A stretch of 64,000 nt of DNA from an uncultured SAR116 cluster alpha proteobacterium (GCA_902517815.1 CABYED010000003.1:70048-134047); one strand, 5' to 3'; counted from the first letter of the stretch, positions 12,589-40,185 are shown. Numbers and translations: made by a program. The notes: generated by a model from the sequence alone, not told the origin.

Positions 12589-13956
12589 TCAACCAATTTG
12601 TATCTTGTTTTTTATAAACCATAGACAAATCAGAGATGGAATTACCATTATAGTTGTTAATAAAAAAAAAGTTCCCCAATCCCCATTTAACCAATCTACA
12701 AGAGTTCCCGAAGATGAAGCAAGAGTAGTTCGACCAGCAGTTCCTAATGACGCAAGTAATGCATATTGTGTAGCTGTATAAGTCCTATCAACTAGTAATG
12801 ATATAAATGCAACGAATGCTACAGTTGCAAATGCCGCTGTGATGTCATCAGCAATAACAGCTATTGCAAATAATAATTCTGATTTCTCAGTCCATGCTAA
12901 AACTGCAAATAGTAGGTTTGTTATAGCCATTAATCCCCCAGCAAAGAACATTGTTTTTATTGTCCCTGCTCTCATTGCCATTATCCCACCTAATAATGTA
13001 AACACAACAGTTGTAATCCAACCAAGCCCCTTTGAATAAATAGCAATCTCTCCTTTAAAAAATCCTATTTCTTTATAAAAAATAATAGACATTCTACCAA
13101 GAAAAGCTTCGCCAATTTTAAATAAGAAAACGAAACCTAGTATTCCAATAGCAATAGCAAAACCATTTTTTTTAAAAAAGCTTATTAAAGGGCCAAATAT
13201 AGTTCCTGAAATATAAGCAAAAATATTTGTAAAATAATTGTTGTATCCAAGTTTATCTATTATCATTTTGTCGGTTTCTCTTTGTTTATTTTGTCTATCA
13301 GTTTTTTTTGGCTCGTTAACAAATATCAAACAAAAATTCATTAGAATTATAATAACTCCTAAAACTAAAAAAGTTAATTGCCAGTAGTTTATAATACCAA
13401 GATTTTCAAAATATTCTGCTGTAAATAAAGCAACTACACCTCCTAATTTATAGCCTGTCCACCAACCAACTACTGCCATTGCAGCCCCAGCTGCCATCGT
13501 TTTCCCCTCATTTTCGTTTATTTGTTCAATTCTTAGAGCATCAATAGTGATATCTTGTGTTGCTGAAGCTATAGCAATTATTAATCCAATAGAAATTAAT
13601 AGAGCCAAGTTTTGAGAAGGATTTATAAAACTCCAAATTATTAAGCTTAATACAATTGTAACTTGCATCAAAATAATCCATGCTCTTCTATGACCTAGTT
13701 TTTTTGTTATTAATGGTATTTGAAATCTATCAATTAATGGAGCCCATAAATAATTAAACGCGTAAACACCAAAAATTAAACCTGCCCAACCAATAGTTGA
13801 TCTACTTAATCCTTCTTCCTTTAACCAAAGGCTGAGACTACTCGCAATAAGTACCCACGGAAAACCACTAATAGCACCAAGAAGTAAAATTTTTAGCATT
13901 CTTAAGTCTTTATAGACTAGAACAGATTGAAGCCAATTTTGTGTTTGATTTGTCAT
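12589..13956 (-). CDS. ampG: AmpG muropeptide MFS permease
   Basis: LLGAISGFP, YLWAPLIDR, ASATQDITIDALRIE, YTATQYALL motifs; about 12 TM. Confidence 0.9.
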   Translation of the reverse strand: MTNQTQNWLQSVLVYKDLRMLKILLLGAISGFPWVLIASSLSLWLKEEGLSRSTIGWAGLIFGVYAFNYLWAPLIDRFQIPLITKKLGHRRAWIILMQVTIVLSLIIWSFINPSQNLALLISIGLIIAIASATQDITIDALRIEQINENEGKTMAAGAAMAVVGWWTGYKLGGVVALFTAEYFENLGIINYWQLTFLVLGVIIILMNFCLIFVNEPKKTDRQNKQRETDKMIIDKLGYNNYFTNIFAYISGTIFGPLISFFKKNGFAIAIGILGFVFLFKIGEAFLGRMSIIFYKEIGFFKGEIAIYSKGLGWITTVVFTLLGGIMAMRAGTIKTMFFAGGLMAITNLLFAVLAWTEKSELLFAIAVIADDITAAFATVAFVAFISLLVDRTYTATQYALLASLGTAGRTTLASSSGTLVDWLNGDWGTFFLLTTIMVIPSLICLWFIKNKIQIG

Positions 13957-14048
13957 AAGATAACAACTTGAGAAGATTAATCATTAAATTACACTAAATT
14001 GCTACAAAAATATATGTTTTTGTTTAATTAAAGTATCTATAATAAGTT

Positions 14049-14585
14049 ATGCAGAAAAATTGGTTAGTTATAAATCTAAATAAAAAATCTTTTCTAAAAG
14101 TTGGTAATAAAATTTTTGAATGTCAAATAGGAGAAGGAGGTTTAAAAACAGCAAGAAAGAAAATTGAGGGAGATAAAACAACACCTATTGGGAAATGGCA
14201 TTTAGAAACAATTTTTTACAGATCTGATAAAATATTGAGACCAAAACTTAAGAAAAAAAATATTTTAAAAATAAATAGAATTACAAAAAATTGTGGTTGG
14301 TGTGACGATATTAGGAGTAAAAAATATAATCGCTACATAAAAATTAATAATTTTCAATCGCTAAACTTAAATTATGAAAAGTTATGGAGAGAAGATGAGG
14401 CATATGACATTATAATTGTTACTTCACACAATGTTAAACCAACAATTAAAAATAAAGGTAGCGCAATATTTATTCATTGTAGTTCCTCAAACAATAAAAA
14501 AACTGCTGGTTGTATTGCATTGAAAAAAAATGATATATCTTTTCTCCTCAAAAACCTTTGTCACAAAACATATATAAAAATTTAA
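14049..14585 (+). CDS. YkuD/L,D-transpeptidase catalytic-domain protein, no signal peptide
   Basis: EGDKTTPIG, WCDD, GSAIFIH...TAGCIAL (His/Cys catalytic motif). Confidence 0.8.
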   Translation: MQKNWLVINLNKKSFLKVGNKIFECQIGEGGLKTARKKIEGDKTTPIGKWHLETIFYRSDKILRPKLKKKNILKINRITKNCGWCDDIRSKKYNRYIKINNFQSLNLNYEKLWREDEAYDIIIVTSHNVKPTIKNKGSAIFIHCSSSNNKKTAGCIALKKNDISFLLKNLCHKTYIKI

Positions 14586-14669
14586 AATTCATAGAAAAAA
14601 ATATAAAACTTTACAGATTAAATTAATCGAATTAAGAATAGTGTTTTTAAATAAAGTAAAGGTTTATAA

Positions 14670-16676
14670 ATGCCATATTCATTAATATCAGTTGTTCTTG
14701 GTCTTCTAGGTCTGTTATCAGCTTATTTAGTCTATCTGAAGGTAAAGTCTTCCTCTGAGGGTGAAGGACGAGTTAAAGAAATTGGAGATGAAATCCACCT
14801 TGGTGCTATGGTTTTTATGTCTGCGGAATATAAACGATTAGCTATTTTTTGTTTAGTATGCATAGTTGCATTATATCTTTCTCTTGGTTGGCAAACTTCT
14901 ATTTCATTTTTACTTGGTGCTTTGTGTTCAGGCACAGCTGGTTTTATTGGAATGTATTCAGCAACAAAAGCAAATGTAAGAACGGCGGTTGCTGCTAAAG
15001 AAAAAGGTGCTTCTGAAGCCCTAAACATAGCTTTTTTTGGTGGGTCAATTATGGGACTAACAGTTGCTGCAATGGGATTGTTGGGTGTCGGAATTTTATT
15101 TTATTATTTTGCAGGTGATATCAAAACAATACACGCGATTGAAGGCTTTGCAATGGGAGCTTCATCTGTTGCATTATTTTCAAGAGTAGGTGGTGGAATA
15201 TTTACTAAGAGTGCAGATGTTGGTGCTGACCTAGTAGGTAAGGTAGAAGCAGGTATTCCAGAGGATGATCCAAGAAATCCTGGCGTTATTGCCGATAACG
15301 TGGGAGACAATGTTGGTGATGTTGCTGGAATGGGTTCAGATATTTTTGAATCATATTGTGGATCTATGATTGCTTGTATAGCCTTGGCTGCTTCAATGAC
15401 TAGCGCTACTATTAATTCATTAGGAGGGAACCAATATCTACTTCAATTTATGCCTTTAGCTTTGGCCTCTTTAGGTATTATATGCTCTTTATTAGGAATA
15501 TTAACTGTTAAAGTTTTTTCCTCAAAAAGTGCAGAAACAGCTCTAAGATATGGAACGATAGGATCAGCTGTACTTTTTGTATTATTATCATACTTTATGA
15601 TTGATTTAATGAATGTTGCTGTTGGTGTTTGGATAGCTGTGCTTGTTGGGTCAATTGGAGGTATAGTAGTTGGATTAATTACTGAATATTATACTGGTGG
15701 AAGCCCTGTAGAAAAAATAGCTAAAGATGGAGAAACTGGTTCTGCTACTATTTTAATATCGGGTTTGGCAACGGGCATGCAATCAGTTGCAATACCAGTT
15801 TTAACAATTGTATCTATAATTTTTATATCAAATATTTATGCAGGGCTCTATGGAGTTGGTATAGCTGCAGTTGGAATGCTAAGTACCGTTGGTATCACTA
15901 TGGCAATAGATGCTTATGGACCAGTTGCTGACAATGCTGGAGGCATAGCTGAAATGTCTGAGATGGGAAAAGAAACCAGAGAAATTACAGATTCACTAGA
16001 CGAAGTTGGAAACACTACTGCAGCTATTGGTAAGGGTTTTGCAATAAGTGCTGCTGCTTTAGCTGCATTGGCCCTTATTAGCGCATATATAGAAAAAATA
16101 TCAATTTCAGATGAGAATTTTGTATTAGCTATTAATGATCCATTAGTTTTATGTGGTATGTTTCTAGGAGGTATTTTCCCATTTTTAGTTAGTTCTATTA
16201 CAATGACTGCAGTTGGTGACGCTGCTTTTGATATGATTAAAGAAATAAGACGGCAATTCAAGGAAATACCAGGTCTATTGGAGGGCAAAGCTAAACCAGA
16301 TACTGCGAGATGTGTAGATATCGCAACTAGAGCTGCTTTAAGAAAAATGATAGCACCAGGAGCTTTAGCTGTTTTGTCACCAGTAATTATTGGATTTCTA
16401 CTTGGTCCAAAAGCTCTTGGAGGAATGTTAGGTGGTGCACTTATATGTTGTGTTATGATGGCCTTGATGATGTCAAATGCAGGTGGGGCTTGGGACAATG
16501 CTAAAAAGTTTGTAGAAAAAGGAAACTTTGGTGGTAAAGGTTCAGAGGTTCATAAAGCAGCTGTAGTTGGTGATACTGTTGGAGACCCTTTAAAGGATAC
16601 ATCTGGTCCTTCAATGAACATCTTAATAAACGTAATGGCAATTGTGAGCTTAGTTATTGCACCACTATTGATTTAA
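14670..16676 (+). CDS. hppA: Membrane-bound pyrophosphatase, K+-dependent, probably Na+-translocating
   Basis: DVGADLVGKVEAGIPEDDPRN, DNVGDNVGD, GNTTAA, GDTVGDPLKD motifs. Confidence 0.95.
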   Translation: MPYSLISVVLGLLGLLSAYLVYLKVKSSSEGEGRVKEIGDEIHLGAMVFMSAEYKRLAIFCLVCIVALYLSLGWQTSISFLLGALCSGTAGFIGMYSATKANVRTAVAAKEKGASEALNIAFFGGSIMGLTVAAMGLLGVGILFYYFAGDIKTIHAIEGFAMGASSVALFSRVGGGIFTKSADVGADLVGKVEAGIPEDDPRNPGVIADNVGDNVGDVAGMGSDIFESYCGSMIACIALAASMTSATINSLGGNQYLLQFMPLALASLGIICSLLGILTVKVFSSKSAETALRYGTIGSAVLFVLLSYFMIDLMNVAVGVWIAVLVGSIGGIVVGLITEYYTGGSPVEKIAKDGETGSATILISGLATGMQSVAIPVLTIVSIIFISNIYAGLYGVGIAAVGMLSTVGITMAIDAYGPVADNAGGIAEMSEMGKETREITDSLDEVGNTTAAIGKGFAISAAALAALALISAYIEKISISDENFVLAINDPLVLCGMFLGGIFPFLVSSITMTAVGDAAFDMIKEIRRQFKEIPGLLEGKAKPDTARCVDIATRAALRKMIAPGALAVLSPVIIGFLLGPKALGGMLGGALICCVMMALMMSNAGGAWDNAKKFVEKGNFGGKGSEVHKAAVVGDTVGDPLKDTSGPSMNILINVMAIVSLVIAPLLI

Positions 16677-16704
16677 TAATTTGTAAATAAATTAATTTAT
16701 TAAT

Positions 16705-16985
16705 GGCTTTATTTACTATATCAATTAATTGATGATTTATTATTCATAAGATCAAATAAAGTTTACATAAAATCGTAGATTGATCGCTTCCAACTACCAT
16801 AAAAGCAAATGTACCATTTTCTCTTCAACAACACCCTTTTAAAACGGGTGCATCAAGCGATAAAATATTATGTAAAATAAATTTTTATTAAGAGATTTAG
16901 CTTAACAACATCATAGCTAACAACTTCATAATTATATTTCAATATAAATATCGATATGGCAGTATAAGATTATTAAAACTAACAC
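16705..16985 (-). pseudogene. mmsB: Decayed, internally deleted copy of mmsB
   Basis: 16788-16870 aligns to intact mmsB 21708-21790 (reverse strand reads ILSLDAPV...GTFAFMV vs ILSLDAPVSGG...TLTFMVGG). 16905-16935 matches YEVIGYDI and about 16705-16735 matches the mmsB 3' end. Frameshifts and stops present; boundaries approximate. Confidence 0.8.
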
Positions 16986-16995
16986 TTAGACAATT

Positions 16996-18090
16996 TTAAA
17001 TACTTTCAAAATATTTTTTTATAACTTCACTAATTGAAAAAATGTCTTCTTCTTTCAAATCTGGGTAACTTGGTAAATTAAGGCCTTTGGCAGCCAATGA
17101 CTCAGCAATTGGAAATGTTTCATTTGATTTAAATGTACCCATTGTGTGCATAGGAGTAAAGAGTGGTCTTGTTTCTACCCCGCGAGCTTTTAAATATTCT
17201 CTGATATTATCTCTATCTTTTTCATTTTTCATTAAAATAGAAACCATCCAAAAACTATTTACACAATCCTTTTCACTTTTTTGAAAAGTTATATCAAAAT
17301 CCTTTAGAAATTTTTGATACCACATAGATATCTTTTGTTTTTTTTGTAATATTATATCTGCCTTTTCTAGTTGAGCTAATCCGATGGCAGAGCATATATT
17401 AGTCATTCGGTAGTTGAAACCAAGTTCATCATGCCAATATTCTTTTTCTTTAGACACAGCTTGACTTTTTAAATAGGCTACACGGTTTACCAATTCTTTA
17501 TTACTTGAAGAAACCATTCCTCCTTCACCGGTTGTAATAGTTTTGTTACCAAAGAAACTAAATGTTGAGATATTTCCAAAATTACCCATATATACACCCT
17601 TATATTTACTCCCAAAACTCTCTGCAGAATCTTCAATTAATAATAGTTTATACTTCTCACAAATTTCCATAATTTTATCCATTGAACATGGATTTCCATA
17701 TAAATGTACAACTAATATTGCTTTAGTATTTTTAGTTATTTTAGAGATTATTTTTTCTGGATTTATATTCCAAGTATCTCTATCAGAATCAACAAAAACA
17801 GGCTTTGCACCTACATATGCCACTGAGTTAGCTGTTGCCACATAAGTTAGCGTTGGTAATATAACTTCATCATTAGGACCTATACCAAGAGTATGCAAAG
17901 CCAAATGAAGAGCAACAGTTCCATTGCTAACTGTTGTAGAGTGTTTGATACCTAAGTAATTTGAGAAACTTTCTTCGAACTTTGAAATAAACTTTCCTCT
18001 AGAAGATATCCAATTACTTTTAATACATTCATTTACATATTTTTCTTCTAAGTCACATAAAAAAGGTTTGTAAACAGGTATATTTAACAT
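16996..18090 (-). CDS. per: DegT/DnrJ aminotransferase, GDP-perosamine synthase-like
   Basis: IPVYKP, WISSRGKFI, NGTVALHLAL, IEDSAES, FSFFGNKTITTGEGG, GFNYRMTN, GLNLPS. Confidence 0.85.
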   Translation of the reverse strand: MLNIPVYKPFLCDLEEKYVNECIKSNWISSRGKFISKFEESFSNYLGIKHSTTVSNGTVALHLALHTLGIGPNDEVILPTLTYVATANSVAYVGAKPVFVDSDRDTWNINPEKIISKITKNTKAILVVHLYGNPCSMDKIMEICEKYKLLLIEDSAESFGSKYKGVYMGNFGNISTFSFFGNKTITTGEGGMVSSSNKELVNRVAYLKSQAVSKEKEYWHDELGFNYRMTNICSAIGLAQLEKADIILQKKQKISMWYQKFLKDFDITFQKSEKDCVNSFWMVSILMKNEKDRDNIREYLKARGVETRPLFTPMHTMGTFKSNETFPIAESLAAKGLNLPSYPDLKEEDIFSISEVIKKYFESI

Positions 18091-18226
18091 AAAAATAATT
18101 CTTTCTTAAAATAGGAAAATAAACTTTCTAATTTACCTGTTTTAAGTAACATATTTCAAAAGCTAAAAACAAGATTCTTTTAAAAGAAAAATGAATTGAA
18201 ATTATAAAAAATTTTTATGAAAGTAA

Positions 18227-19462
18227 TTAAATACTTTTTAATTTTTTTATTTCTAAATCTGAGATAATTATTAAAAATTCTTGCAATTTAATAAGCTCTG
18301 ATTTTTTTAATGTCCAATGGCACGGGATATTTATTATTGAATTAGATATTTTCAAAGAATTGATATGTGAATGTATTCTAGAGTTTGAAAGTTCCCACTT
18401 TGGAGGAACTTCAGAAAACCATCTACCAGTTTCAATACCAATTTCAGCACCTTTAATTATTATTTTATCTATTAGTTTTTTATCAACTATGATTGGTAAT
18501 CTTGGTGTAACAATGAATTCATTTGAATTTTCAATAATTGGACAGTTCAAATTAAGTTTAATCGCTTTGTCGAGTAGAAATTTGTAATTATGTCTTGAAA
18601 TTTTATAAAAATTTGTAAAATTGGGATAGATATAGTTAAATAGTTTAATACTTATTGGACCCATTCTTTCTTTAATATTTTTAGGAGGCAGAATATAAGT
18701 AGAAGAAGTCCTAAAAATCTTTGTTCCGTATAAAAAATACCATAACAAAATCCCAAAACTTGGTTGAAAGTTAGTTAAAAAAACACTTAACCATAATTGA
18801 ATAAATCTTCTACAATCTGCAAATACTGAAATTTTTCTTAATGAAAAGTACCTTGAAATCATTTTGTCTTTATAAAGTTTATTATTAATCTTAACTAATC
18901 CTCCCCATCCTATTGTTATTGTTTTTGAAACTTCAAGCGAAAAAAAAGATATGTCACCAAATGATCCTAAATTTATATCATTGATTTTACTACCAATAGA
19001 GAGAGCACAATCCTCAATTAAAAATATTTTTTTAGCTTTTATTTTGTCTATTGTTTGTTTTTTTAATCCAAGACGACCAAATGTATTTTGAAATATAATT
19101 GCCTTTGTTTTAGCATTGATAGCATTCAGCACTTCTCTATCGTTCATTGTTAAATCGTCATTTATATCAACGTAGACAATTTTTGCACCTGTTCTTTTTA
19201 CGGCAAATGTAACTGCATCACATGTGAAAGAAGAAATAATGACTTCATCTTTTGTACCAACATCATTCGCAATCAAGCAATTGTAAAGTGCTGAACGTGC
19301 AGATTCATATTTAAGTAGCTGTTCTTTTTGGTTGGATAATTGTGATTTGGATTTGTAAAAAACTTTGCTTAAAAAACTATTGAGTAATTTTTGGTTCATT
19401 CCTCTCCATAATAGGCCTGTTCCTTTTCCAAATTTAGATGGTGTTGATTTAAAAAAATTCAT
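18227..19462 (-). CDS. Divergent DegT/DnrJ-family PLP enzyme
   Basis: SARSAL, DEVIISSFTCDAV, IEDCAL, FFSLEVSKTITIGWGG (Lys retained), INIPCH. Confidence 0.7.
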   Translation of the reverse strand: MNFFKSTPSKFGKGTGLLWRGMNQKLLNSFLSKVFYKSKSQLSNQKEQLLKYESARSALYNCLIANDVGTKDEVIISSFTCDAVTFAVKRTGAKIVYVDINDDLTMNDREVLNAINAKTKAIIFQNTFGRLGLKKQTIDKIKAKKIFLIEDCALSIGSKINDINLGSFGDISFFSLEVSKTITIGWGGLVKINNKLYKDKMISRYFSLRKISVFADCRRFIQLWLSVFLTNFQPSFGILLWYFLYGTKIFRTSSTYILPPKNIKERMGPISIKLFNYIYPNFTNFYKISRHNYKFLLDKAIKLNLNCPIIENSNEFIVTPRLPIIVDKKLIDKIIIKGAEIGIETGRWFSEVPPKWELSNSRIHSHINSLKISNSIINIPCHWTLKKSELIKLQEFLIIISDLEIKKLKSI

Positions 19463-19535
19463 TTAATACCATTTTTTTATAAAGATACTTTTAATATTTA
19501 GATTAGATTAATGTCAAATTTTGGAGTTCATATTT

Positions 19536-20594
19536 TTAAGTTAATATAGAATTTTCACGTAATATTTTTTTTAAGTTTTTTAATCTAATTTTGTAAGTAA
19601 ATTCTTTTTCAACACGTTCCAAGACAGATTTTGAATATTTATTTCTTTGAGAATTTTTTAATGAAACAAAATTTAAAAGAAGTTTACCAATTGTTTTACC
19701 TCTCATATCCATAGCTATATAACCAGTATTACCAACCACTTCAGGTTGAGAAGTATATCTCGATACCAATGCTGGAACCCCTAAAGCCATAGCTTCAAGT
19801 ACCGCGTTTCCAAAACCTTCACACCATGAAGGTTGAATATATAAGTCACTTTTTAAATAAAACTTTATTTTTTCAGATTGAGGAACATCTATATAAACTT
19901 TAACTTTATCTTCTAATTTAAGCTCTTTAATTCTTTTCTTTAAACTTAATACTCCATCTCCATCTTTACCTATTATTGACCACTCAAAATTTTTTTGTGT
20001 TTTTTTATTCAAGTAAAAAATACCATCTAAACTTTCATAGATACCCTTCCTAATATGTTGTTTATTTGTATGCCACAATGTAGTTAAAAAATGAATTTTA
20101 TTTTCATCATTAGAATTTCTTTTTCTTTCTAAAAGGATTTTTTTTATATCCAAAAGATCACTTTTTTTAAGTGAAGAGCGAAGAGTGACTGGATTTTTAA
20201 CTTTAAAATGGGTTGTCACCTGATTGTATTGGTCAAAAGAAATAAATAAATTACAATCGGCAAAAGCCATTGCAAACCTAATCATAAATTTATAAATCCA
20301 GTTTAATTTAAAAAAAGTAGTAACTCCAGATAAATCAAACACATGAATTGCTCCAATTGTAAAAACTTTTTTTTGAAATAACTTTCCTAAAATTAACGCA
20401 GGTATTGATCTACCCCACCACCAACAATAAATAAGATGAGATCCTCTAATATTTTTTAATAAATCCCAAAATGTATTGCAGACTATTACCTCAGTAAAAA
20501 GATCTTTTAACATATCAAGTTCTACTTGATAATATTCCCAATCAGAAATAAATTTTTTATCTACTGGAAGATAATAAATTACTTTTTTCTTCAT
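19536..20594 (-). CDS. GT4 family glycosyltransferase
   Basis: PSWCEGFGNAVLEAMALG motif. Confidence 0.85.
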   Translation of the reverse strand: MKKKVIYYLPVDKKFISDWEYYQVELDMLKDLFTEVIVCNTFWDLLKNIRGSHLIYCWWWGRSIPALILGKLFQKKVFTIGAIHVFDLSGVTTFFKLNWIYKFMIRFAMAFADCNLFISFDQYNQVTTHFKVKNPVTLRSSLKKSDLLDIKKILLERKRNSNDENKIHFLTTLWHTNKQHIRKGIYESLDGIFYLNKKTQKNFEWSIIGKDGDGVLSLKKRIKELKLEDKVKVYIDVPQSEKIKFYLKSDLYIQPSWCEGFGNAVLEAMALGVPALVSRYTSQPEVVGNTGYIAMDMRGKTIGKLLLNFVSLKNSQRNKYSKSVLERVEKEFTYKIRLKNLKKILRENSILT

Positions 20595-20904
20595 AAAAAA
20601 ATCCTCTTAACAATTTATCGTCTAATTTTTTTTTAAAGTTCAATCTATATAATTACTAATAATATAATAAAAGTTCTAAACCTAAAAACTTTGATTATAT
20701 TTTTTTCTTATGTTGTTGAAGGTTATTGATCTAATAATGAAAACTAACAACCATCTTGTATAGATTAATTTAAAAGTTAACAAATTAAAAATAAGAAAGT
20801 ATGTCAAATAATTTAAATATTCTTTGACGAATACTTTTTCTTGTAAAGATTACTCATAAGATAAATAACAATATAATTACAAATAATATTTTTATTACTT
20901 AACA

Positions 20905-21211
20905 GTTTTGAAGTCAAAGTTTTGTATTTACTATAATAAAAACCAAACTGCTTTATAAAGATAAAAATAAATAGATATAATATTGTTTTATGATGGCATT
21001 AATGATGTATAACCTTGGCTGTTGATTGGGATAAAGCTGAAAAGTTTGTACAAAAAAGGAAACTTTGATTGTAAAGGATCAGAAATTCATAAAGTAGCAG
21101 TTTGGTGATACAGTAACTGACCCATTGAAAGATATTTAAGGACCGTCAATGAATACTTTAATAAATCTTATGGCTATCGTTAGTTTAGCTGTAGCTCCAC
21201 TTTTGATTTAA
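20905..21211 (+). pseudogene. hppA: Decayed 3' fragment of a second hppA allele
   Basis: 20981-21211 aligns to hppA 16446-16676 (MMALMM, WDKAEKFV, KGSEIHK, PSMNTLINLMAIVSLAVAPLLI*) with frameshifts and stops; weaker matches near 20905-20965. Confidence 0.9.
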
Positions 21212-21242
21212 CAAAAACAATGATAAAGCTATTTAAATAGCT

Positions 21243-22115
21243 TTATTTATTAAATTTTATAATAGCTGAAAAGTCTAATGATCCTTGGTTTTCATTAACC
21301 ATTCTTTTATAATTTTCTTGTGAGTTTTTACCAAATGGTGCTGAAGTATTTGTACTTTCAATAGCCTTTAGAGCAATAGTAAGATCTTTTAGCATCAGAT
21401 CTGATGAAAAACCAGGTCTAAAGTCATTATCTGCTGGACTTGTTGGCCCAACACCTTTTATTGGGCAATAGCTATTTATAGCCCAACAGGAACCAGTTGA
21501 GGTTGACAATATTTCGAATAATTTTTTTGGATCCAAACCTAAATTCTGTCCTAAAGAAAAAGCTTCCCCTACTCCAATCATAGTAGTTGCTAATAACATA
21601 TTATTACATGCTTTTGTTGCTTGTCCTAAACCGGAAGAACCACATAATAATGATTTTTTACCCATTACTTCAAACAGGGGTAACATCATTTTATAAGCAT
21701 TTTCTGTTCCACCTACCATAAAAGTTAATGTTGCTTGTTCAGCTCCACCAACACCCCCTGAAACTGGAGCATCAAGAGATAAGATTTTTTTATCTTCACA
21801 TTTTTTATGAAGTTCTCTTGCTTTATCTACTTCAATGGTTGAGCAGTCTACAAATAGAGTGCCACGCGTGAACTTATCAATTATATTATCATAAACTTCT
21901 TCTACAATGTCACCATTAGGTAACATTGTAATTACAATATCCGTATCTTCCGCGATATCACTTAAATTATTAGCTGGCTTAAGGCCTTTAGGTAATAGAT
22001 TTTTCACAAATTCTTTATTTATATCATAACCAATAACCTCATAATTAGCTTTAAGAAGATTCATTGTCATTTTAGCTCCCATATTACCTAAGCCAATAAA
22101 ACCGATTTTTTTCAT
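21243..22115 (-). CDS. mmsB: 3-hydroxyisobutyrate dehydrogenase
   Basis: IGFIGLGNMG, ITMLPNG, DAPVSGG, KACNNMLL, YCPIKG, LMLKDL. Confidence 0.9.
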   Translation of the reverse strand: MKKIGFIGLGNMGAKMTMNLLKANYEVIGYDINKEFVKNLLPKGLKPANNLSDIAEDTDIVITMLPNGDIVEEVYDNIIDKFTRGTLFVDCSTIEVDKARELHKKCEDKKILSLDAPVSGGVGGAEQATLTFMVGGTENAYKMMLPLFEVMGKKSLLCGSSGLGQATKACNNMLLATTMIGVGEAFSLGQNLGLDPKKLFEILSTSTGSCWAINSYCPIKGVGPTSPADNDFRPGFSSDLMLKDLTIALKAIESTNTSAPFGKNSQENYKRMVNENQGSLDFSAIIKFNK

Positions 22116-23272
22116 TCCAATTCTCCTTTTAATAAAAATTCAGATAGAGGTGCAGTTTGAGTTTTAATCTTTCGTTCTGAGGTTAAAAGCTTTTCACTTA
22201 TTTGTAAATCTTGCTTCAATCCAAAAATGAAAGGATACCATTCTCTTGACAAACCACCTTTCCATTTCCATAAAAGGAAATCTAGTGCTTCAAAATCTTC
22301 ATCATTAACATTTACTTTTTGAGCTGGAGGGTTAGAACCAAAATCTGGTTTTAAAAAAAATTTTTTTATTTTTATAAATAATTTTGGGACACCGTGAATT
22401 TCCAACAATTTTGACCATTCTTTAATATTTTTCTGACCTCTGAAATTATTGGAGTAAATGTCTAAAATCAGAAGATCGGTTTTTATTAAACCTGTAGGAT
22501 TAATCATTACATCATTAATATTCTGTCTTCCAACATAAGGTCCTATAAACAGACGTCTAGGACAATAGTCATTTGAATAGTAATTATCCCAAAAAATTAC
22601 CCTATTTTGTAATGTTGTCTTAATCAATTTATAATTTGATAAATTTTTAGAAACAACATTTTTACCACAATAGAACATAATTATTTTTGGATCCAATATC
22701 TTACTTAAGTCTTTTAAATAAAAAGGTTCATCTTGAATTAATTCATCAGCGTATATTCTAGGCACAAAGAAGATACTTTGTTCTAATTCTTTTGAAAGCT
22801 TGTTCGCCAAAATAGCATGATATGTTCCTTCGGACACATCAACGCCAAATTTATTTTTGAAATTAGGTGGAATGTCATCTAACAATAAGGCTATTGAAGT
22901 TGCACCATCATTAAGTAATTGCCTTGCTTTACGTAAAAGAACTTCAAAATCTGATTTTTTATTTGTTTTGGTTTTTTCTTTTAGTTGTCTGAAATTAAAG
23001 TCTAACCCAGGTGCAAGTCCTGCGATAACATCAATTTCATATTTTTTACTTACGTCTGTAAATTTACGAAAATTTAAACGCCAACTTTTGCTATATTTTT
23101 TTTTCCAACATAATCTATGATATGTGTCTTCTTTTGGGGCATAGAAATAGGTGTTCATATTATTTTTGTACAGAGACTTAATTATAAGTTCTCTATGTTC
23201 CCATGACAGAAGTCTTCCATAATAACCCTCTATATAGCCTCTGATACTTTTTTTAGCTGTTCTTTTTTTCAT
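22112..23272 (-). CDS. GH84 beta-N-acetylglucosaminidase (O-GlcNAcase-like) catalytic-domain protein
   Basis: RGYIEGYYG, YFYAPKEDTYHR, APGLD, catalytic LLLDDI, WDNYYSNDY; no signal peptide; stop overlaps the mmsB start by 4 nt. Confidence 0.85.
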   Translation of the reverse strand: MKKRTAKKSIRGYIEGYYGRLLSWEHRELIIKSLYKNNMNTYFYAPKEDTYHRLCWKKKYSKSWRLNFRKFTDVSKKYEIDVIAGLAPGLDFNFRQLKEKTKTNKKSDFEVLLRKARQLLNDGATSIALLLDDIPPNFKNKFGVDVSEGTYHAILANKLSKELEQSIFFVPRIYADELIQDEPFYLKDLSKILDPKIIMFYCGKNVVSKNLSNYKLIKTTLQNRVIFWDNYYSNDYCPRRLFIGPYVGRQNINDVMINPTGLIKTDLLILDIYSNNFRGQKNIKEWSKLLEIHGVPKLFIKIKKFFLKPDFGSNPPAQKVNVNDEDFEALDFLLWKWKGGLSREWYPFIFGLKQDLQISEKLLTSERKIKTQTAPLSEFLLKGELE

Positions 23273-23328
23273 TTGATATCTTTATTAATATTTGAATATT
23301 ATAATATCGAAATTAGGAGAAAAACATA

Positions 23329-24018
23329 ATGAAAATTTTAGCTATTGGCGCTCATCCTGACGATATAGAAATCTTTATGTATGGTTTAGTTTCTACTTAT
23401 AAAAAAAAGGGGAACCAAGTATTTACTATGATTGCAACTGATGGCTCTAAAGGAGGATCCACAAAAGACGATTTATTGTCCAAAAAAAGAGAAAAAGAGG
23501 CTATAGCTGGGTTAAAAAAAATATCAAAACCGATTTTTTTAAATATACCTGATGGTGAATTAGGTGAAGATCCTGAGCATCGCAGAATAATAAAAGAAAA
23601 CATTTTAAAAATTATGCCAGATTTGATCATTACTCACTTTCAAAATGATTATCATTCTGATCATAGGTCTTTATCATTTATAACAAGCAGTGTTGTAAGT
23701 CATTATATCCCGGTAATATACTGCGACACTTTGATGGGTATAAATTTTAATCCTAACTTTTACATTGATATAACAGAGCATTTTTTGTTAAAAAAAGAAG
23801 CAATTCTAAAACATGAAACGCAAAAACCGCAAAGATTTATAGATTTGGCTAAATTAATGAATAGTTATAGGGCGGCACAGTGTAATGCTCCAAAAGGTAA
23901 ATATGCTGAAGCATATTTCTTCGAGCCGTCTTTCCCTTTTGCTGATATAAGGCACATTTTACCATCACCTCTCAAACTAAGACCTTTTCATATAGACAAT
24001 CAGCATGGATTTTTATAA
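23329..24018 (+). CDS. PIG-L/LmbE family N-acetyl-sugar deacetylase
   Basis: GAHPDDIE and DYHSDH metal motifs; AGGAG SD upstream. Confidence 0.85.
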   Translation: MKILAIGAHPDDIEIFMYGLVSTYKKKGNQVFTMIATDGSKGGSTKDDLLSKKREKEAIAGLKKISKPIFLNIPDGELGEDPEHRRIIKENILKIMPDLIITHFQNDYHSDHRSLSFITSSVVSHYIPVIYCDTLMGINFNPNFYIDITEHFLLKKEAILKHETQKPQRFIDLAKLMNSYRAAQCNAPKGKYAEAYFFEPSFPFADIRHILPSPLKLRPFHIDNQHGFL

Positions 24019-25104
24019 GCATTTATACAACTTACCTCCTGACTGAGGTTTTGATACTCCGGTAGTTGAAGGAAAAGTAAATGGAAGTTTATAAATTGAT
24101 CTTGCTGATAAATAAGCAATTAATTCTGCCTCTATATAATCAAAATTAAGGCCTATTTCTGTTTCATAAATGAAATTTATTTTTAATCTTTCTTTAAGTC
24201 TTTTCATCAAGTAAATATTTTTATACCCACCACCAGTTATTAAAATATTATTAATTTTTTTAGGCAAGAGTTCTATGCCACTAGCAACAGTTTCAACTGT
24301 AAACTCAGCCAATGTTGCCATTATATCTTTTAATGAATATTTTTTTTTTATCAATTTTTTATATGTATCTAAAAAAGTACCTCTATCTAAAGATTTAGGA
24401 GGAGGTTGTTTGAAAAAATCATTTTCTAGAAAATTTTTAATTTCATCATTTATAGGATATCCACTGGATGCTATATTTCCATCTTCATCAAAGTTTTTAT
24501 TTAAAACAGCTAACATATAATCATCCATAAGTGCATTCCCTGGTCCAGTATCAAACCCAATAAGATTATAACCATCCCAATATGTTATATTAGAAACACC
24601 ACCTATATTTAAAATGCAAGTTGGAAGTTTTAAGTTTGTTTGTTCAATAACATATTTATGATATATAGGTGCTAATGGAGCACCCTGACCTCCGAATAAA
24701 ATATCATTTGATCTAAAATCAAAAATAACATTTTTATTGAGCAACATTGATAATTTTTTTGGATCGCCAAGTTGAATAGAAATTTGTTGTTTTGAGTTAT
24801 GATATATTGTTTGTCCATGAAAACCAATTAAGTCACTCTTCTTAATAATATCTAAATCTTTAATAGCTAAATAATGTTCATTTGTAACAAACTCATCTAA
24901 ATATTTCTTTCTTTTTAAATTAAAATTTATGTCTTGTTTTAAAATATTAATTAATTTTTTTTTGGTGTTAGGGCTATATTTGTAAAAATAATTTTCATTT
25001 AACCTTTTTAAATTAAGACCATTAGTTTGAACCAAACTAATATCAATCCCATCCATGCTAGTTCCGGTCATTAAACCAACAATATTTAAGAAATCATAAT
25101 GCAA
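24013..25104 (-). CDS. anmK: Anhydro-N-acetylmuramic acid kinase
   Basis: GLMTGTSMDGID, GFHGQT, GGQGAPL, LNIGGVSN, FDTGPGN, PPKSLDR, TFPSTTG. Confidence 0.95.
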   Translation of the reverse strand: MHYDFLNIVGLMTGTSMDGIDISLVQTNGLNLKRLNENYFYKYSPNTKKKLINILKQDINFNLKRKKYLDEFVTNEHYLAIKDLDIIKKSDLIGFHGQTIYHNSKQQISIQLGDPKKLSMLLNKNVIFDFRSNDILFGGQGAPLAPIYHKYVIEQTNLKLPTCILNIGGVSNITYWDGYNLIGFDTGPGNALMDDYMLAVLNKNFDEDGNIASSGYPINDEIKNFLENDFFKQPPPKSLDRGTFLDTYKKLIKKKYSLKDIMATLAEFTVETVASGIELLPKKINNILITGGGYKNIYLMKRLKERLKINFIYETEIGLNFDYIEAELIAYLSARSIYKLPFTFPSTTGVSKPQSGGKLYKCL

Positions 25105-25151
25105 ACTAAAATTATTCCTTTTAAATAAACATAAATTATTTAATATGAATC

Positions 25152-25898
25152 ATGTCTCAAAATATACCTAAAACTGAACTTTTATATAAAAAAAGTAAGC
25201 CCATCGATAAGTTAAGTTTATCTGATGGTATAATCTTAATGACAAAAGAACAAAAAAACGCTTCATTAGAAGTTAAAAAAGCGTATAAATCAATTGAGAT
25301 ATCAATTAATAAAATTTACAAACATTTAGTGGCAAATCCAAATTCAAGATTGATATATGTTGGAGCGGGGACATCCGCAAGGATTGGTGTACAAGATGGG
25401 GTTGAACTTTTCCCAACATTTAATTGGCCAAAGAGTAGGTTAGATTTTATAATTGCTGGTGGCAATAAAGCTATTTTAGGTGCCGTAGAAAATGCTGAAG
25501 ATGATATAATTCAAGCTAAAAAAGCGGTATTACAAAAATTATTATGCGCAAAAGATGTTGTAATTGGTTTGGCCGCTAGTGGTAATACCCCTTTTACCTG
25601 TAAAGTTCTAGAAGAGGCTCAAAAAAAAAATGCTCTTACAATTGCAATAAGCAACAATCCAGAAGGAAAATTATTGAATTTTGGAAAATGTAATATCATT
25701 CTTGATACAAGAGAAGAGTTGATTTCAGGATCAACAAGATTAAAAGCTGGTACCGCTCAGAAAATTTGTCTAAATATAATATCTTCTATGGTTATGCTAA
25801 AAATGGGGAAAATTAAAAACGGAACAATGACTCATATGGTCCCAACAAATCAAAAACTTAGAGATAGAAAGCAGAGAATTGATATGGGAAAATATTAG
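25152..25898 (+). CDS. murQ: N-acetylmuramic acid 6-phosphate etherase (short form)
   Basis: GAGTSARIGVQDGVELFPTF, AVENAED, AASGNTPF, GSTRLKAGTAQK. Confidence 0.9.
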   Translation: MSQNIPKTELLYKKSKPIDKLSLSDGIILMTKEQKNASLEVKKAYKSIEISINKIYKHLVANPNSRLIYVGAGTSARIGVQDGVELFPTFNWPKSRLDFIIAGGNKAILGAVENAEDDIIQAKKAVLQKLLCAKDVVIGLAASGNTPFTCKVLEEAQKKNALTIAISNNPEGKLLNFGKCNIILDTREELISGSTRLKAGTAQKICLNIISSMVMLKMGKIKNGTMTHMVPTNQKLRDRKQRIDMGKY

Positions 25899-26042
25899 AG
25901 CTTTTAACAATAATTAATAAACTATTAAATTATAATAAGAATTTAAATCTAATTTTCTAACCAAAATTCAGAATTTGCATGATCCTAAACAATAGTAAAA
26001 AAATAATTATGTTATTAAGATTAAAATATTAAGGAGAAAAAA

Positions 26043-27053
26043 ATTAAAAAAATTGTTTTAATAACAGGATCTTCTGGATTTATCGGTTTTCATATAGCTA
26101 AATATTTTTTATTGAAAAAATGGTTAGTTATAGGTCTAGATGCGATGACAGATTATTACGATATTAACTTAAAGAAAAGTAGGCTAAAACTCTTAAAAGG
26201 CAATTTTAAATTTATTAGCTATATTGGTTTAATACAGGACAAAAAAATATTAAATGAAATTTTTTTAAAATATAACCCTAAAATTATTATTCATCTGGCA
26301 GCACAAGCCGGAGTTAGATATTCAATTGAAAATCCAAATTCCTACTTAGAGTCGAATATAGTAGGAGCTTTCCACCTTTTAGAAATTGCAAGAGAATTTA
26401 GACCAATTCATTTATTAATGGCATCAACATCTTCGGTATATGGTAACAACAAAGATATTCCATTTCAGGAAAATCAAAAATGTGATAGCCAAATATCTTT
26501 TTATGCAGCGACAAAAAAATCAAATGAGTTGATGGCGCATTCATATTCACATTTATATAATATACCTATTACCATGTTTCGTTTTTTTACTGTTTATGGA
26601 CCATGGGGAAGACCTGATATGGCTTTATTTAAATTCACCAAAAACATCTTACTAGATAAACCTATTGAAGTCTATAATCAAGGAAACATGTATAGAGATT
26701 TTACATTTATAAATGATTTAGTAACAGCTGTTTATTTATTGACGCAAAAAATACCTTTAAATAAAAATTTAAGAAAAGAAACTTTTAAAAATGATAGTAT
26801 TTCAGATATTGCTCCGTTTAGAATAGTAAATATTGGAAATTCTAAAGCAGTAAAGTTAATAGACTTTATAACTGAATTAGAATTTGTTCTTGGGAAAAAA
26901 GCTAAGAAAAATTTTCTAGAAATGCAAAATGGAGATGTTTACAAAACACATAGTAATATAGAATTGTTGAAGGCTATTACGGGGTTTAGGCCAAATACAA
27001 GCTTACGTGAGGGGATAACTGCATTTGTAAAATGGTATAAGTCATATTATTGA
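26043..27053 (+). CDS. UDP-glucuronate 4-epimerase-like SDR
   Basis: HLAAQAGVRYS, YAATKK, YGPWGRPDMA. The Rossmann motif ITGSSGFIG lies in frame upstream of the track start 26112, so the start is extended to ATT at 26043, 6 nt after AAGGAG. Confidence 0.8.
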   Translation: MKKIVLITGSSGFIGFHIAKYFLLKKWLVIGLDAMTDYYDINLKKSRLKLLKGNFKFISYIGLIQDKKILNEIFLKYNPKIIIHLAAQAGVRYSIENPNSYLESNIVGAFHLLEIAREFRPIHLLMASTSSVYGNNKDIPFQENQKCDSQISFYAATKKSNELMAHSYSHLYNIPITMFRFFTVYGPWGRPDMALFKFTKNILLDKPIEVYNQGNMYRDFTFINDLVTAVYLLTQKIPLNKNLRKETFKNDSISDIAPFRIVNIGNSKAVKLIDFITELEFVLGKKAKKNFLEMQNGDVYKTHSNIELLKAITGFRPNTSLREGITAFVKWYKSYY

Positions 27054-27085
27054 TTTTTTAAAAAATGCAATTACACAAACTATTT

Positions 27086-27841
27086 TTAATTAAAATCCAT
27101 CATTTTTATTATATTAAAATCTTTACCTATTCTCTTAATTATTTGAAGTAGAGGTTCTGTTTTTGTCTTCATGTGAAAAGCATTTGCATGAATACAATTT
27201 AAGTTATCTATCATAATACCTACATGACCTTCCCAAAAGATTACACATCCTCTTTTCAAATCATCAATATTTTTAATATTCCTTTTTTTTAATTGTATTT
27301 GTTGTGAAGTATTTCTGGGTATATTTTCTCCATAAGTTTGATAAGATAATTGTAATAAAGCCGAGCAATCTAGTCCAATAGTATCTCTTCCGCCCCATTT
27401 ATAAGGAGTGTCTTCTAGTAATTGAGCAACCTCTACCCAATCCGCAAGCTGATGATCTAGTTTAACAATGTGCTTGGCTGGCACGTAACCAATTTGTATT
27501 TCATTATTATAATTAAAACTAATTTCTGCCCAATCAAATCTAATATTTTCTACTAAAATCTTAGCACCCATTGGAAGATATAAAAGAGAGTTAGATCTTG
27601 AATTTTTATTTATATAAATAAAGGATCTACTTGCGATAACTCTATGCGTTGGATTTTTTGATTTACCCAATCCCTTTTTCTTAATCCACCCACAATAATT
27701 ATCTGTCTCTAATTTACAATATACCCAATCAAAATGCTTGTCTAAAATCTCAACAGTTTCACCAAACAAACATTCGGTTTCGAGAGGGGATGTCTCAATG
27801 GGTTCTGATTTCATAACTACTGAAGAAGTTATAATGTTCAT
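27086..27841 (-). CDS. SH3-NlpC/P60 (C40) peptidase, gamma-D-Glu-diamino acid endopeptidase-like
   Basis: PYKWGG, DCSAL, GHVGI, IHAN Cys-His-His triad; N-terminal LFGE...YCGWI SH3-like domain. Confidence 0.85.
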   Translation of the reverse strand: MNIITSSVVMKSEPIETSPLETECLFGETVEILDKHFDWVYCKLETDNYCGWIKKKGLGKSKNPTHRVIASRSFIYINKNSRSNSLLYLPMGAKILVENIRFDWAEISFNYNNEIQIGYVPAKHIVKLDHQLADWVEVAQLLEDTPYKWGGRDTIGLDCSALLQLSYQTYGENIPRNTSQQIQLKKRNIKNIDDLKRGCVIFWEGHVGIMIDNLNCIHANAFHMKTKTEPLLQIIKRIGKDFNIIKMMDFN

Positions 27842-28248
27842 GGGAATTTATCTTTAACCCATGATTTTACATCAAAATTTGGACAAGTTTTATTAGTATC
27901 ACCTGTATCACAATGTCCAACTATAGTAGCTTTAGGGTATAAAGATTTCCATTTTCTTAAAATTCTTTCCAATGATATATATTGCTTTATTGTAAATTTA
28001 GTTCTTCCAATTAAACATACACCTAAACTAATATCATTTTTTCCTTTAACGTGAGCTCCAACCCAGTATTCGGGTCGTCCATTTTCAACTTTGCCAGATC
28101 TGTTGATTATTTTGTGATACCCCACGCCATCCCAACCAAATTTTAAATGCATTTTGTGCAGATCTAAGGCACTTAAATTTTGACTGTCTTCAGTGTCTGA
28201 GCAATGAACTACAAGTAACTTAATTTTTTCGCGAAATAAAATATTCAT
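27838..28248 (-). CDS. T7-lysozyme-like N-acetylmuramoyl-L-alanine amidase (amidase_2)
   Basis: VVHCS, GWDGVGYH, GAHVKG, GH and KTCPNFDV Zn-amidase motifs; 4-nt overlap with the NlpC/P60 gene. Confidence 0.9.
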   Translation of the reverse strand: MNILFREKIKLLVVHCSDTEDSQNLSALDLHKMHLKFGWDGVGYHKIINRSGKVENGRPEYWVGAHVKGKNDISLGVCLIGRTKFTIKQYISLERILRKWKSLYPKATIVGHCDTGDTNKTCPNFDVKSWVKDKFP

Positions 28249-39498: not shown

Positions 39499-40185
39499 AT
39501 GCGTGAAAAATCAAAAGATATTCTTATTGTAGTTGCTCACTCTGATGACGAAACTCTAGGTTTAGGAGGTACAATAAAAAAGCATGTTCAAAAGGGAGAT
39601 AATGTTTATGCAATCTATATGACCGATGGCGTTACTGCGAGGAAGGGCAATCAATCGCAACAAGTAATTTTACGCAAAAACGCTGCCATAATGGCAAGCA
39701 AAATTTTAGGTTTTAAGTGGGAAACTTCATATAGATTCGATGATAACAAAATGGACTCCTATCCATTGTTAGATATCATTAAAAAAATTGAATTAGCAAA
39801 ATTTAAAATTAATCCTGATATTGTATATACTCATAGTGTTGCGGACTTAAACATTGATCATCGTAGAGTATGCGAAGCAGTTCTTGTGGCATTTCGTCCT
39901 CAACCAGACGAAAAATGTCGTGAAATTAGGTTGTTTGAAGTTGTGTCAGCAACAGATTATGGACATGAAAATGTAACAGGTAAATTCGTTCCAAACTTAT
40001 ATATTGACATCAGCGGTACTTGGGAAAAGAAAGAAGAAGCATTAACTTGTTACAACCCTGAAATGCGCAAATATCCACATAGCCGTTCCATAGAGGCAAT
40101 AAAAAATCTAGCACGGTACAGAGGAAATCAAGTTGGATTGAATTTATGTGAGGCTTTTCAAGTTATCCGTAAGATAGAGATTTAG
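39499..40185 (+). CDS. PIG-L family deacetylase
   Basis: AHSDDETLG, DLNIDH, PHSRS motifs. Confidence 0.85.
   Translation: MREKSKDILIVVAHSDDETLGLGGTIKKHVQKGDNVYAIYMTDGVTARKGNQSQQVILRKNAAIMASKILGFKWETSYRFDDNKMDSYPLLDIIKKIELAKFKINPDIVYTHSVADLNIDHRRVCEAVLVAFRPQPDEKCREIRLFEVVSATDYGHENVTGKFVPNLYIDISGTWEKKEEALTCYNPEMRKYPHSRSIEAIKNLARYRGNQVGLNLCEAFQVIRKIEI

Follow-up and report, generated by a model that had tools for sequence, protein, structure and literature searches.

A candidate peptidoglycan recycling cluster of the SAR116 lineage with a GH84 glycosidase and a PIG-L deacetylase proposed in the roles of NagZ and NagA

Peptidoglycan recycling in Escherichia coli employs the permease AmpG, of which the substrate is GlcNAc-anhMurNAc-peptide (N-acetylglucosaminyl-1,6-anhydro-N-acetylmuramyl-peptide), together with NagZ, AmpD, LdcA, Mpl, MpaA, AnmK, MurQ, NagK, NagA and NagB. 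Bacterial enzymes of glycoside hydrolase (GH) family 84 are the standard structural models for human O-GlcNAcase. Their physiological roles are described as unknown in PMC4683255. According to PMC13046382, Caulobacter crescentus recycles its wall by AmpG, AmiR, NagZ, AnmK, MupP-AmgK-MurU and NagA1/2. Enzymes taking the place of MpaA and LdcA have also been described: YkfC is functionally equivalent to MpaA, with a Tyr/Asp pair setting its free-peptide specificity (PMC4600125), and the cytoplasmic YkuD-family protein ElsL of Acinetobacter baumannii replaces LdcA (PMC8649774). Here we describe a stretch of 64,000 nucleotides (hereafter the window; G000:C3:70048-134047) from an uncultured SAR116 cluster alphaproteobacterium, in which ampG, anmK and murQ are clustered with the genes for five hydrolases, GH84 beta-N-acetylglucosaminidase, PIG-L deacetylase, T7-lysozyme-type amidase, SH3b-NlpC/P60 protein and YkuD protein. 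The source assembly, G000, is 2.04 Mb long with 31% GC (guanine plus cytosine) and is 88.97% complete.

Comparison of sequences and gene neighborhoods indicates that this cluster is likely to recycle the anhydromuropeptides of the cell's own wall to glucosamine 6-phosphate (GlcN-6-P), which would be reused via GlmM and GlmU, with GH84 doing the job of NagZ and PIG-L the job of NagA. All eight open reading frames (ORFs) grouped in the preliminary description, which was made from the sequence alone, are intact and match their families (Table 1). AmpG, AnmK and MurQ all exceed the curated cut-offs, and the GH3-type NagZ and the amidohydrolase NagA of the canonical set are missing. The cluster is thus a conserved variant of the textbook pathway, in which two of the five replacements, those by NlpC/P60 and YkuD, have precedent. 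The five hydrolases had been regarded as cytoplasmic, and a crude proxy, the hydrophobicity of the most hydrophobic 11-residue N-terminal window, which is not a signal-peptide prediction, is in keeping with this view: the values are 0.36-1.36 for the five, whereas two exported proteins of E. coli, MppA and LdtC, gave 2.27-2.34, and the cytoplasmic E. coli LdcA, MpaA and NagZ gave 1.15-1.89 by the same proxy.

The lack of canonical recycling genes, first noted for the window, was found to extend to the whole assembly, in which GH3, GH20 and S66 (the LdcA family) gave no match, NagA only weak amidohydrolase fragments and Mpl only matches below the cut-off. Searches of the assembly by blastp and tblastn with E. 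coli NagZ, NagK, NagA, NagB, MpaA and LdcA likewise gave no match, and the only copy of Amidase_2 is that of the window. No AmgK or MurU was recognizable in this 89% complete assembly, although the search included no model specific to either; among three APH-family matches, one is homoserine kinase and two are unassigned, and the three NTP-transferases are ManC, GlmU and a 287-residue protein read as GalU by its size and neighbor only. GlmS, GlmM, GlmU, MurA, an Slt-like lytic transglycosylase and an unlinked glucokinase are all present. Several other candidates were rejected, i.e., the sole PF01182 match as NagB (it is Pgl in a zwf-pgl-edd operon), two enolase-superfamily matches as Ala-Glu epimerase (they score best with sugar-acid dehydratase models), and a GlmU-like match as MurU (it is CysE).

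The presence and absence of genes were counted in 60 order-level relatives and, separately, in six Granulosicoccaceae. The proposal that GH84 would perform the role of NagZ in SAR116, the cleavage of GlcNAc-beta-1,4-anhMurNAc, is well supported by gene context and by anti-correlation. GH84 and AnmK were each found in 40 of the 60 relatives, 38 genomes having both, 18 neither, and two plus two being discordant. In line with the anti-correlation anticipated in the preliminary description, GH3 is absent from all 60 relatives, including three single-contig genomes rated 100% complete, and from all six Granulosicoccaceae, but is present in 51 of the 59 other alphaproteobacteria without GH84 that served as control. 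GH20 was detected in none of the five genomes tested. Residues D132-D133, K47 and W228-D229-N230 of GH84 are conserved in all 90 homologs, and D132-D133 align with the Asp-Asp pair of human OGA. The architecture is an O-GlcNAcase-like barrel with a short helical part; for the AlphaFold model (mean predicted local distance difference test score, 89.7), the best Foldseek match is OgOGA (template-modeling score, 0.75), other top matches being O-GlcNAcases as well.

GH84 is rare in the class, being present in 10 of the 401 alphaproteobacterial genomes sampled, of which seven are outside the order. A second type of GH84 was recognized in genome G485, in which the genes are arranged as gntR-anmK-ampG-gntR-murQ-BadF-type kinase-GH84-D-lactate dehydrogenase (L136:2963-12391). 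In the family of G485, four of the 118 genomes have GH84, three of them with murQ and a BadF (NagK-type) kinase and two also with nagA; among the loci of this type (L136, L230 and L231), anmK, ampG and D-lactate dehydrogenase are found in one only. The G485-type GH84 is only 27% identical to that of the window and falls into a different clade on a quick tree drawn from 53 chosen rows, so that two separate origins are suggested for the link of GH84 to wall sugars. Proteins assigned by name to Gemmatimonadota, Marinobacter and Phenylobacterium are among the homologs of the G485-type enzyme at about 60% identity. In four small SAR86-type gammaproteobacterial genomes (G075-G078; L068, L070, L072 and L083), an unlinked GH84 gene lies near hemA-prfA-prmC, the only GH3 genes are long ones (>800 residues), and AnmK is present in three of the four; GH84 may replace NagZ in trans in these genomes.

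The role of NagA is proposed for PIG-L on the support of mutual exclusion and a shared neighborhood. Among the 60 relatives, PIG-L is present in 34, always together with GH84, and NagA in eight, and no genome has both. Six GH84-bearing relatives lack PIG-L, two of them having NagA elsewhere and four having neither. In six PIG-L-less clusters, which probably represent one lineage, a nagA-family gene is located beside murQ or anmK, and all three checked exceed the TIGR00221 cut-off. All six Granulosicoccaceae lack PIG-L and have a NagA match, two over the cut-off. The metal motifs of PIG-L, H9-P-D-D12 and H109-x-D-H112, are conserved in all 43 homologs, which form a distinct clade with invariant basic residues R54, R113, K155 and R181. 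The protein stays below the cut-offs for BshB1 (TIGR04001, 74 against 182.5 bits) and BshB2 (TIGR04000, 28 against 195 bits), and its solved relatives include diacetylchitobiose deacetylases (8BGN, 3WE7 and 3WL4; E values of 1e-9 to 2e-11) and BshB-type enzymes.

A profile search of protein representatives with PIG-L gave 124 matches at 1e-30. A metagenome scan that covered 3 of 64 parts gave 539 matches, and among the best 80, which were kept, 16 were orthologs of at least 40% identity, 13 of which are beside GH84 or anmK. Among 64 more distant relatives, ten are beside a NagB-like gene, four of five checked matching NagB models below the cut-off; these ten loci are possibly NagA-free operons for amino-sugar catabolism. 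In these loci (L166, L169, L170, L175, L178, L184, L198, L200, L203 and L212), PIG-L is accompanied by NagB-like, ROK, SIS, PfkB and sugar ABC genes. The clusters of G049 (L084), G055 and G037 have MurQ and neither PIG-L nor NagA.

Conservation of the cluster was surveyed by a scan of one genome per species, which gave 176 GH84 relatives, and the best 80 loci were kept; partner genes were counted within the fetched DNA only, many contigs ending early. The neighborhood proved to be conserved, as would be expected from the preliminary description: at least one of the seven partner genes is present in 60 of the 80 loci, at least four in 45, and all seven in 17, the order of frequency being anmK (50), ampG (46), amidase (44), nlpC (44), murQ (42), ykuD (36) and PIG-L (34). 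In distant relatives, of which GH84 is 37-44% identical, amidase-nlpC-ampG-ykuD-murQ-anmK-PIG-L-GH84 are contiguous within about 7.5 kb without hppA, hibA or glycan genes. The compact cluster is found across SAR116 (Puniceispirillales) and in parts in Granulosicoccaceae, in which seven loci combine amidase and GH84 with a variable selection of the other genes. Among named organisms, the nearest GH84 homologs (63-68%) belong to Ca. Marisalimonas, Ca. Levibacter and SCGC AAA536-K22, those of Ca. Puniceispirillum and Puniceispirillales being more distant, and the source organism is therefore taken to be a low-GC SAR116. On the quick tree, all the sampled cluster-linked GH84s form one clade (29 of the 53 rows; SH-aLRT support, 99), and the sampled partnerless GH84s are outside this clade. 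Of the 20 loci without partner, three are alphaproteobacterial and lie on short contigs or at the edge of a contig, and the other 17 belong to Fibrobacterota, SAR86 or other gammaproteobacteria.

Two additional genes accompany the clusters of relatives, both without ortholog in G000. An M19 dipeptidase gene is beside the cluster in 38 of the 80 loci, usually immediately after GH84 (for instance, L088:10691-11719), and is a candidate for cleavage of L-Ala-D-Glu or of meso-diaminopimelate (mDAP)-D-Ala in a pathway without evident epimerase. A HAD phosphatase gene precedes or diverges from the amidase gene in 22 loci (for instance, L088:3337-4095), which could represent inherited synteny or the removal of excess sugar phosphate. 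Its identification as MupP was rejected based on its score on the MupP model (39 against 359 bits), the lack of a G000 ortholog and the lack of a MurU candidate. In several clusters (L007:8087-9580, L062, L073, L030 and L054), a longer and divergent ampG-like permease gene (28-36% identity) takes the place of ampG. Five genomes of at least 90% completeness (G015, G019, G038, G042 and G045) have no GH84, GH3, AnmK or cluster amidase, and the recycling route seems to have been lost from them as a block.

As to the peptide branch, residues H15, Y44, H112, K120 and C122 of the amidase are conserved in all 51 homologs, and the His/His/Cys ligands (H15, H112 and C122) and Y44 presumably take the roles known for T7 lysozyme, which is also the best solved relative (E value, 2e-23). 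The amidase is below the AmpD equivalog cut-off (NF008758, 29 against 143 bits), and is best assigned to a different subfamily of AmpD's own Pfam family, PF01510, rather than to an unrelated enzyme. It was matched in only one of 60 other alphaproteobacteria and is therefore specific to the cluster. In 16 of the 80 loci, amidase and NlpC/P60 form one ORF as judged from length, the domain content being confirmed for one. For the NlpC/P60 protein, the best solved relatives are 3H41, 3PVQ and 3NPF; the triad C159/H206/H218 is conserved in 51 of 52 homologs and the gate Tyr49, aligned with the tyrosine of 3PVQ, in 49, and position 177 is Asp in 26 and Asn in 25, including the window protein. Tyr49 is here taken, by a numbering offset of our own, to be the Tyr80 so numbered in PMC4600125. 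The Asp that binds the free L-Ala amine is strictly conserved in YkfC-type peptidases according to the same paper, in which a lysin with a single Ala-to-Tyr change also became peptide-specific (PMC4600125); a YkfC-like function is therefore plausible in spite of Asn177. The YkuD protein has H143 and C155 in common with all 45 homologs, but gave no NCBIfam match, no Protein Data Bank match under an E value of 0.2, and only unnamed YkuD clusters in the Atlas. Its position next to ampG in SAR116 is no more than suggestive. In other alphaproteobacteria, a YggS-like gene adjoins ykuD in 11 of 20 cases examined, and a recycling gene lies within 1.5 kb in none. Since Mpl is lacking, YkuD does not seem to be required here, and its assignment as L,D-carboxypeptidase, the weakest of the five, can be made only tentatively.

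Taken together, the following order of reactions is proposed. By family membership, AmpG would import GlcNAc-anhMurNAc-peptide, from which GH84 likely removes GlcNAc and the T7-type amidase, with the same likelihood, frees the stem peptide. AnmK and then MurQ, again by family membership, would convert anhMurNAc into GlcNAc-6-P and D-lactate. Deacetylation of GlcNAc-6-P to GlcN-6-P is the favored though less certain role of PIG-L, which might alternatively act on free GlcNAc. In view of the failure to find NagB, GlcN-6-P would re-enter GlmM/GlmU/MurA. The YkfC-like peptidase probably cuts gamma-D-Glu-mDAP in the free peptides, and YkuD might, with some doubt, trim D-Ala. Use of the GlcNAc that is set free would require the unlinked glucokinase, and this branch depends on the putative role of that enzyme because no NagK-family kinase was found. 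The lack of NagB and the intact de novo pathway point to salvage into new wall and not to feeding. In the preliminary description a stand-in was assigned to every missing step; comparative support was obtained for GH84 in place of NagZ and for PIG-L in place of NagA, but the amidase shares its family with AmpD and YkuD is doubtful, and NlpC/P60 for MpaA and YkuD for LdcA have been published already (PMC4600125 and PMC8649774). The extension of the route to free amino acids, also envisaged there, is incomplete, since neither an L-Ala-D/L-Glu epimerase nor the M19 dipeptidase of many relatives was found in the assembly. A broader generalization is offered with more doubt than confidence, i.e., that all five hydrolytic steps of SAR116 muropeptide salvage would be non-canonical, that splitting of GlcNAc-anhMurNAc would be the everyday job of compact cytoplasmic bacterial GH84s, recruited at least twice, and that the PIG-L clade would be a second, structurally unrelated GlcNAc-6-P deacetylase.

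A number of observations weigh against the proposed pathway. The genomes compared are kin, so that the counts of presence and absence are not independent. No NagK-family (ROK) kinase, L-Ala-D/L-Glu epimerase or dipeptidase was found in the assembly. Four relatives (G021, G037, G049 and G055), including the closed genome G049, have GH84 but neither PIG-L nor NagA, and one PIG-L ortholog of 46% identity lies outside any cluster (L161). A partial match to GH3 occurs in G085, one of 13 additional genomes that bear the cluster. Six of the seven GH84s from other alphaproteobacterial families have no recycling neighbors, nor do the 17 GH84s of Fibrobacterota, SAR86 and other gammaproteobacteria in the fetched DNA. 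G485 also has short, NagZ-sized GH3 genes besides its anmK/murQ-linked GH84, and linkage therefore does not always mean replacement. The same YkuD clade is present in 32 of the 60 other alphaproteobacteria, and YkuD has been lost in all four cluster-bearing genomes of one genus and in all six Granulosicoccaceae; moreover, Caulobacter (PMC13046382) and Agrobacterium (PMC9790009), also without LdcA, apparently have no cytoplasmic L,D-carboxypeptidase.

Other explanations were weighed on the same evidence. The locus might serve recycling with GH84 as NagZ, and PIG-L might have a different substrate, be it free GlcNAc, the disaccharide or a MurNAc derivative, and bypass NagA, in a manner similar to archaeal Dac on GlcNAc and chitobiose. 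By name, none of the solved PIG-L relatives acts on a sugar phosphate, and the missing NagK-family kinase and the four GH84-bearing relatives with neither PIG-L nor NagA are also in accord with such a role; however, a deacetylase is required for the GlcNAc-6-P produced by MurQ, the side of PIG-L-less clusters toward murQ/anmK is taken by nagA, and distant PIG-L relatives adjoin NagB-like genes (10 of 64 loci), and this explanation is considered unlikely. The preliminary description had left recycling and scavenging side by side; salvage seems more likely than scavenging for energy, since no NagK-family kinase or NagB was found. That the cluster mainly takes up foreign wall fragments from seawater as food would suit a streamlined marine heterotroph, as inferred from the relatives, in which no Mpl exceeds the cut-off and the peptide is apparently broken down, and some relatives (L139) keep NagB-like, NagA and ABC genes beside anmK and murQ. 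Against this, the assembly has no NagB, the cluster includes neither a secreted hydrolase nor an outer-membrane receptor, and AmpG imports the products of lytic transglycosylases (PMC13046382); in addition, scavenging and own-wall recycling would use the same enzymes. We regard scavenging as very improbable.

Hardly more credit, indeed slightly less, is given to the explanation that GH84 is a protein O-GlcNAcase or surface-glycan enzyme and PIG-L a gene of lipopolysaccharide or exopolysaccharide synthesis, their proximity to anmK being inherited synteny. The locus does border a large glycan and polysaccharide island that holds a second PIG-L gene (39499-40185), the best structural matches of GH84 are O-GlcNAcases, and Thermobaculum reportedly possesses an OGA/OGT pair that is intracellular (PMC4683255). 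GT41, however, is absent from four of the five genomes tested (G000, G051, G060 and G061) and present only in G049; the eight genes are contiguous in distant relatives without glycan genes, the linkage persists through reshuffling and through transfer to gammaproteobacteria, and AmpG, AnmK and MurQ would otherwise be present without any disaccharide-splitting enzyme. Recycling of the cell's own wall, with GH84 and PIG-L in the roles of NagZ and NagA, is thus preferred.

Table 1. Genes and segments of the recycling locus and their positions within the window
Feature	Position	Strand	Basis
ampG, muropeptide permease of the major facilitator superfamily (MFS), 455 aa	12589..13956	-	TIGR00901 370 bits, cut-off 350
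Small YkuD-family protein, 178 aa, candidate L,D-carboxypeptidase	14049..14585	+	PF03734
hppA, H+-pyrophosphatase, passenger	14670..16676	+	PF03030
Inserted glycan cassette, outside pathway: two DegT aminotransferases, one GT4 (glycosyltransferase family 4)	16677..21242	.	4.57 kb
hibA, 3-hydroxyisobutyrate dehydrogenase, passenger	21243..22115	-	TIGR01692 over cut-off
GH84 beta-N-acetylglucosaminidase, 386 aa, proposed NagZ replacement	22112..23272	-	PF07555, 163 bits
PIG-L/LmbE-family deacetylase, 229 aa, proposed NagA replacement	23329..24018	+	PF02585
anmK, anhydro-MurNAc kinase, 363 aa	24013..25104	-	NF007141 370 bits, cut-off 352
murQ, MurNAc-6-P etherase, 248 aa	25152..25898	+	NF003915 262 bits, cut-off 168
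NAD-dependent sugar epimerase, passenger	26112..27053	+	PF01370
SH3b-NlpC/P60 protein, 251 aa, YkfC-like	27086..27841	-	SH3_16 + NLPC_P60
T7-lysozyme-type Amidase_2, 136 aa, proposed AmpD replacement	27838..28248	-	PF01510

Within the locus, hibA overlaps the stop of GH84 by 4 bp and the amidase overlaps the nlpC start by 4 bp; ampG is single-copy in the assembly. MurQ is of a short form, which ends about 55 residues before the C terminus of its E. coli counterpart, as in the relatives (median of the homolog cluster, 249 residues). Its E85 and E116 align with E83 and E114 of E. coli MurQ, which we take to be the catalytic residues. The genes hppA, hibA and epimerase within the span are lineage-specific passengers outside the pathway: hppA forms part of the cluster in close relatives of low GC alone and in none of the distant high-GC clusters, hibA adjoins GH84 only in close relatives, and the epimerase is between murQ and nlpC in only some of them. 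The GxxGxxG motif of the epimerase is upstream of the first ATG/GTG/TTG (26031-26112), and the gene may start at an in-frame ATT at 26043, which is preceded by AAGGAG.

The segment from 16.7 to 21.2 kb had been regarded as an inserted cassette, and it is indeed an insertion because hibA directly adjoins hppA without cassette in four relatives of the same genus (L146-L149) and because its right edge (about 20975-21212) is a degenerate second copy of the hppA 3' end, of some 235 bp (76% identity in an alignment of 231 columns that includes indels). In one contig from a metatranscriptome, 16677 is joined directly to 21363. In three other relatives (L009, L100 and L102), an epimerase gene is located at the site of the cassette, suggesting a hot spot of replacement. 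The second PIG-L of the neighboring island is 26% identical and is separate from the recycling-linked PIG-L clade. Scans of the region for promoters (91 against 100 +/- 9 expected) and terminators (5 against 6.8 expected) stayed at the level of chance, and hence no operon structure is drawn from either. A single RNA run contained 5% of the region's words, with contigs in all but one of 30 bins and identities of 85-95% for the most part; since these contigs give neither level nor strand and may include DNA, expression is not claimed.

In the open-access literature, subscription journals and supplements being outside the coverage, no report was found of the GH84 or PIG-L family in recycling, nor of the SAR116 cluster, and the proposed roles in wall recycling would likely be undescribed for both types of enzyme. 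The cluster offers a candidate natural substrate and a direct assay for bacterial GH84. If true, PIG-L in the place of NagA would add a new analogous enzyme to those known for a central step of amino-sugar metabolism, and metabolic models that score SAR116 as incapable of wall-sugar reuse would be corrected; an abundant lineage of the ocean may save nitrogen and carbon by salvage of wall fragments.

Relative to the pathway of E. coli, AmpG, AnmK, MurQ and the proposed order of reactions are shared, but no GH3 NagZ, NagA, S66 LdcA, MpaA, Mpl, ROK NagK or NagB was found here; a cluster of GH84, PIG-L, T7-type amidase, YkfC-like protein and YkuD is present in their stead, with the genes in one locus, and MurQ is about 50 residues shorter. 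The AmpG-based alphaproteobacterial route without LdcA and Mpl is shared with C. crescentus, which, as described in PMC13046382, has GH3 NagZ and NagA but no MurQ, whereas the window genome has MurQ but no recognizable AmgK or MurU. The NlpC/P60 protein has the SH3b plus NlpC/P60 layout, the Cys-His-His triad and the gate tyrosine in common with YkfC and AvPCP (PMC4600125), but differs in Asn for the specificity Asp, in the fusions of its relatives to T7-type amidase, and in the lack of an adjoining YkfB epimerase. Similarly to ElsL (PMC8649774), the YkuD protein is a small YkuD domain with the His/Cys pair, no evident signal peptide and an LdcA-less genome, but its clade occurs widely among alphaproteobacteria, with a YggS-like gene alongside, and its genome is without Mpl. 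With the GH84 O-GlcNAcases (human OGA, OgOGA, CpNagJ, BtGH84 and TtOGA), the GH84 of the window shares the fold, the Asp-Asp pair and the active-site motifs, but it is compact (386 residues), has no OGT partner in four of five genomes, and its context points to the muropeptide disaccharide, a substrate not found reported for GH84. PIG-L shares the HPDD and HxDH metal motifs with the PIG-L/LmbE deacetylases BshB, archaeal Dac and LnmX, but is different from these enzymes in that it belongs to a clade of its own and alternates with NagA across genomes.

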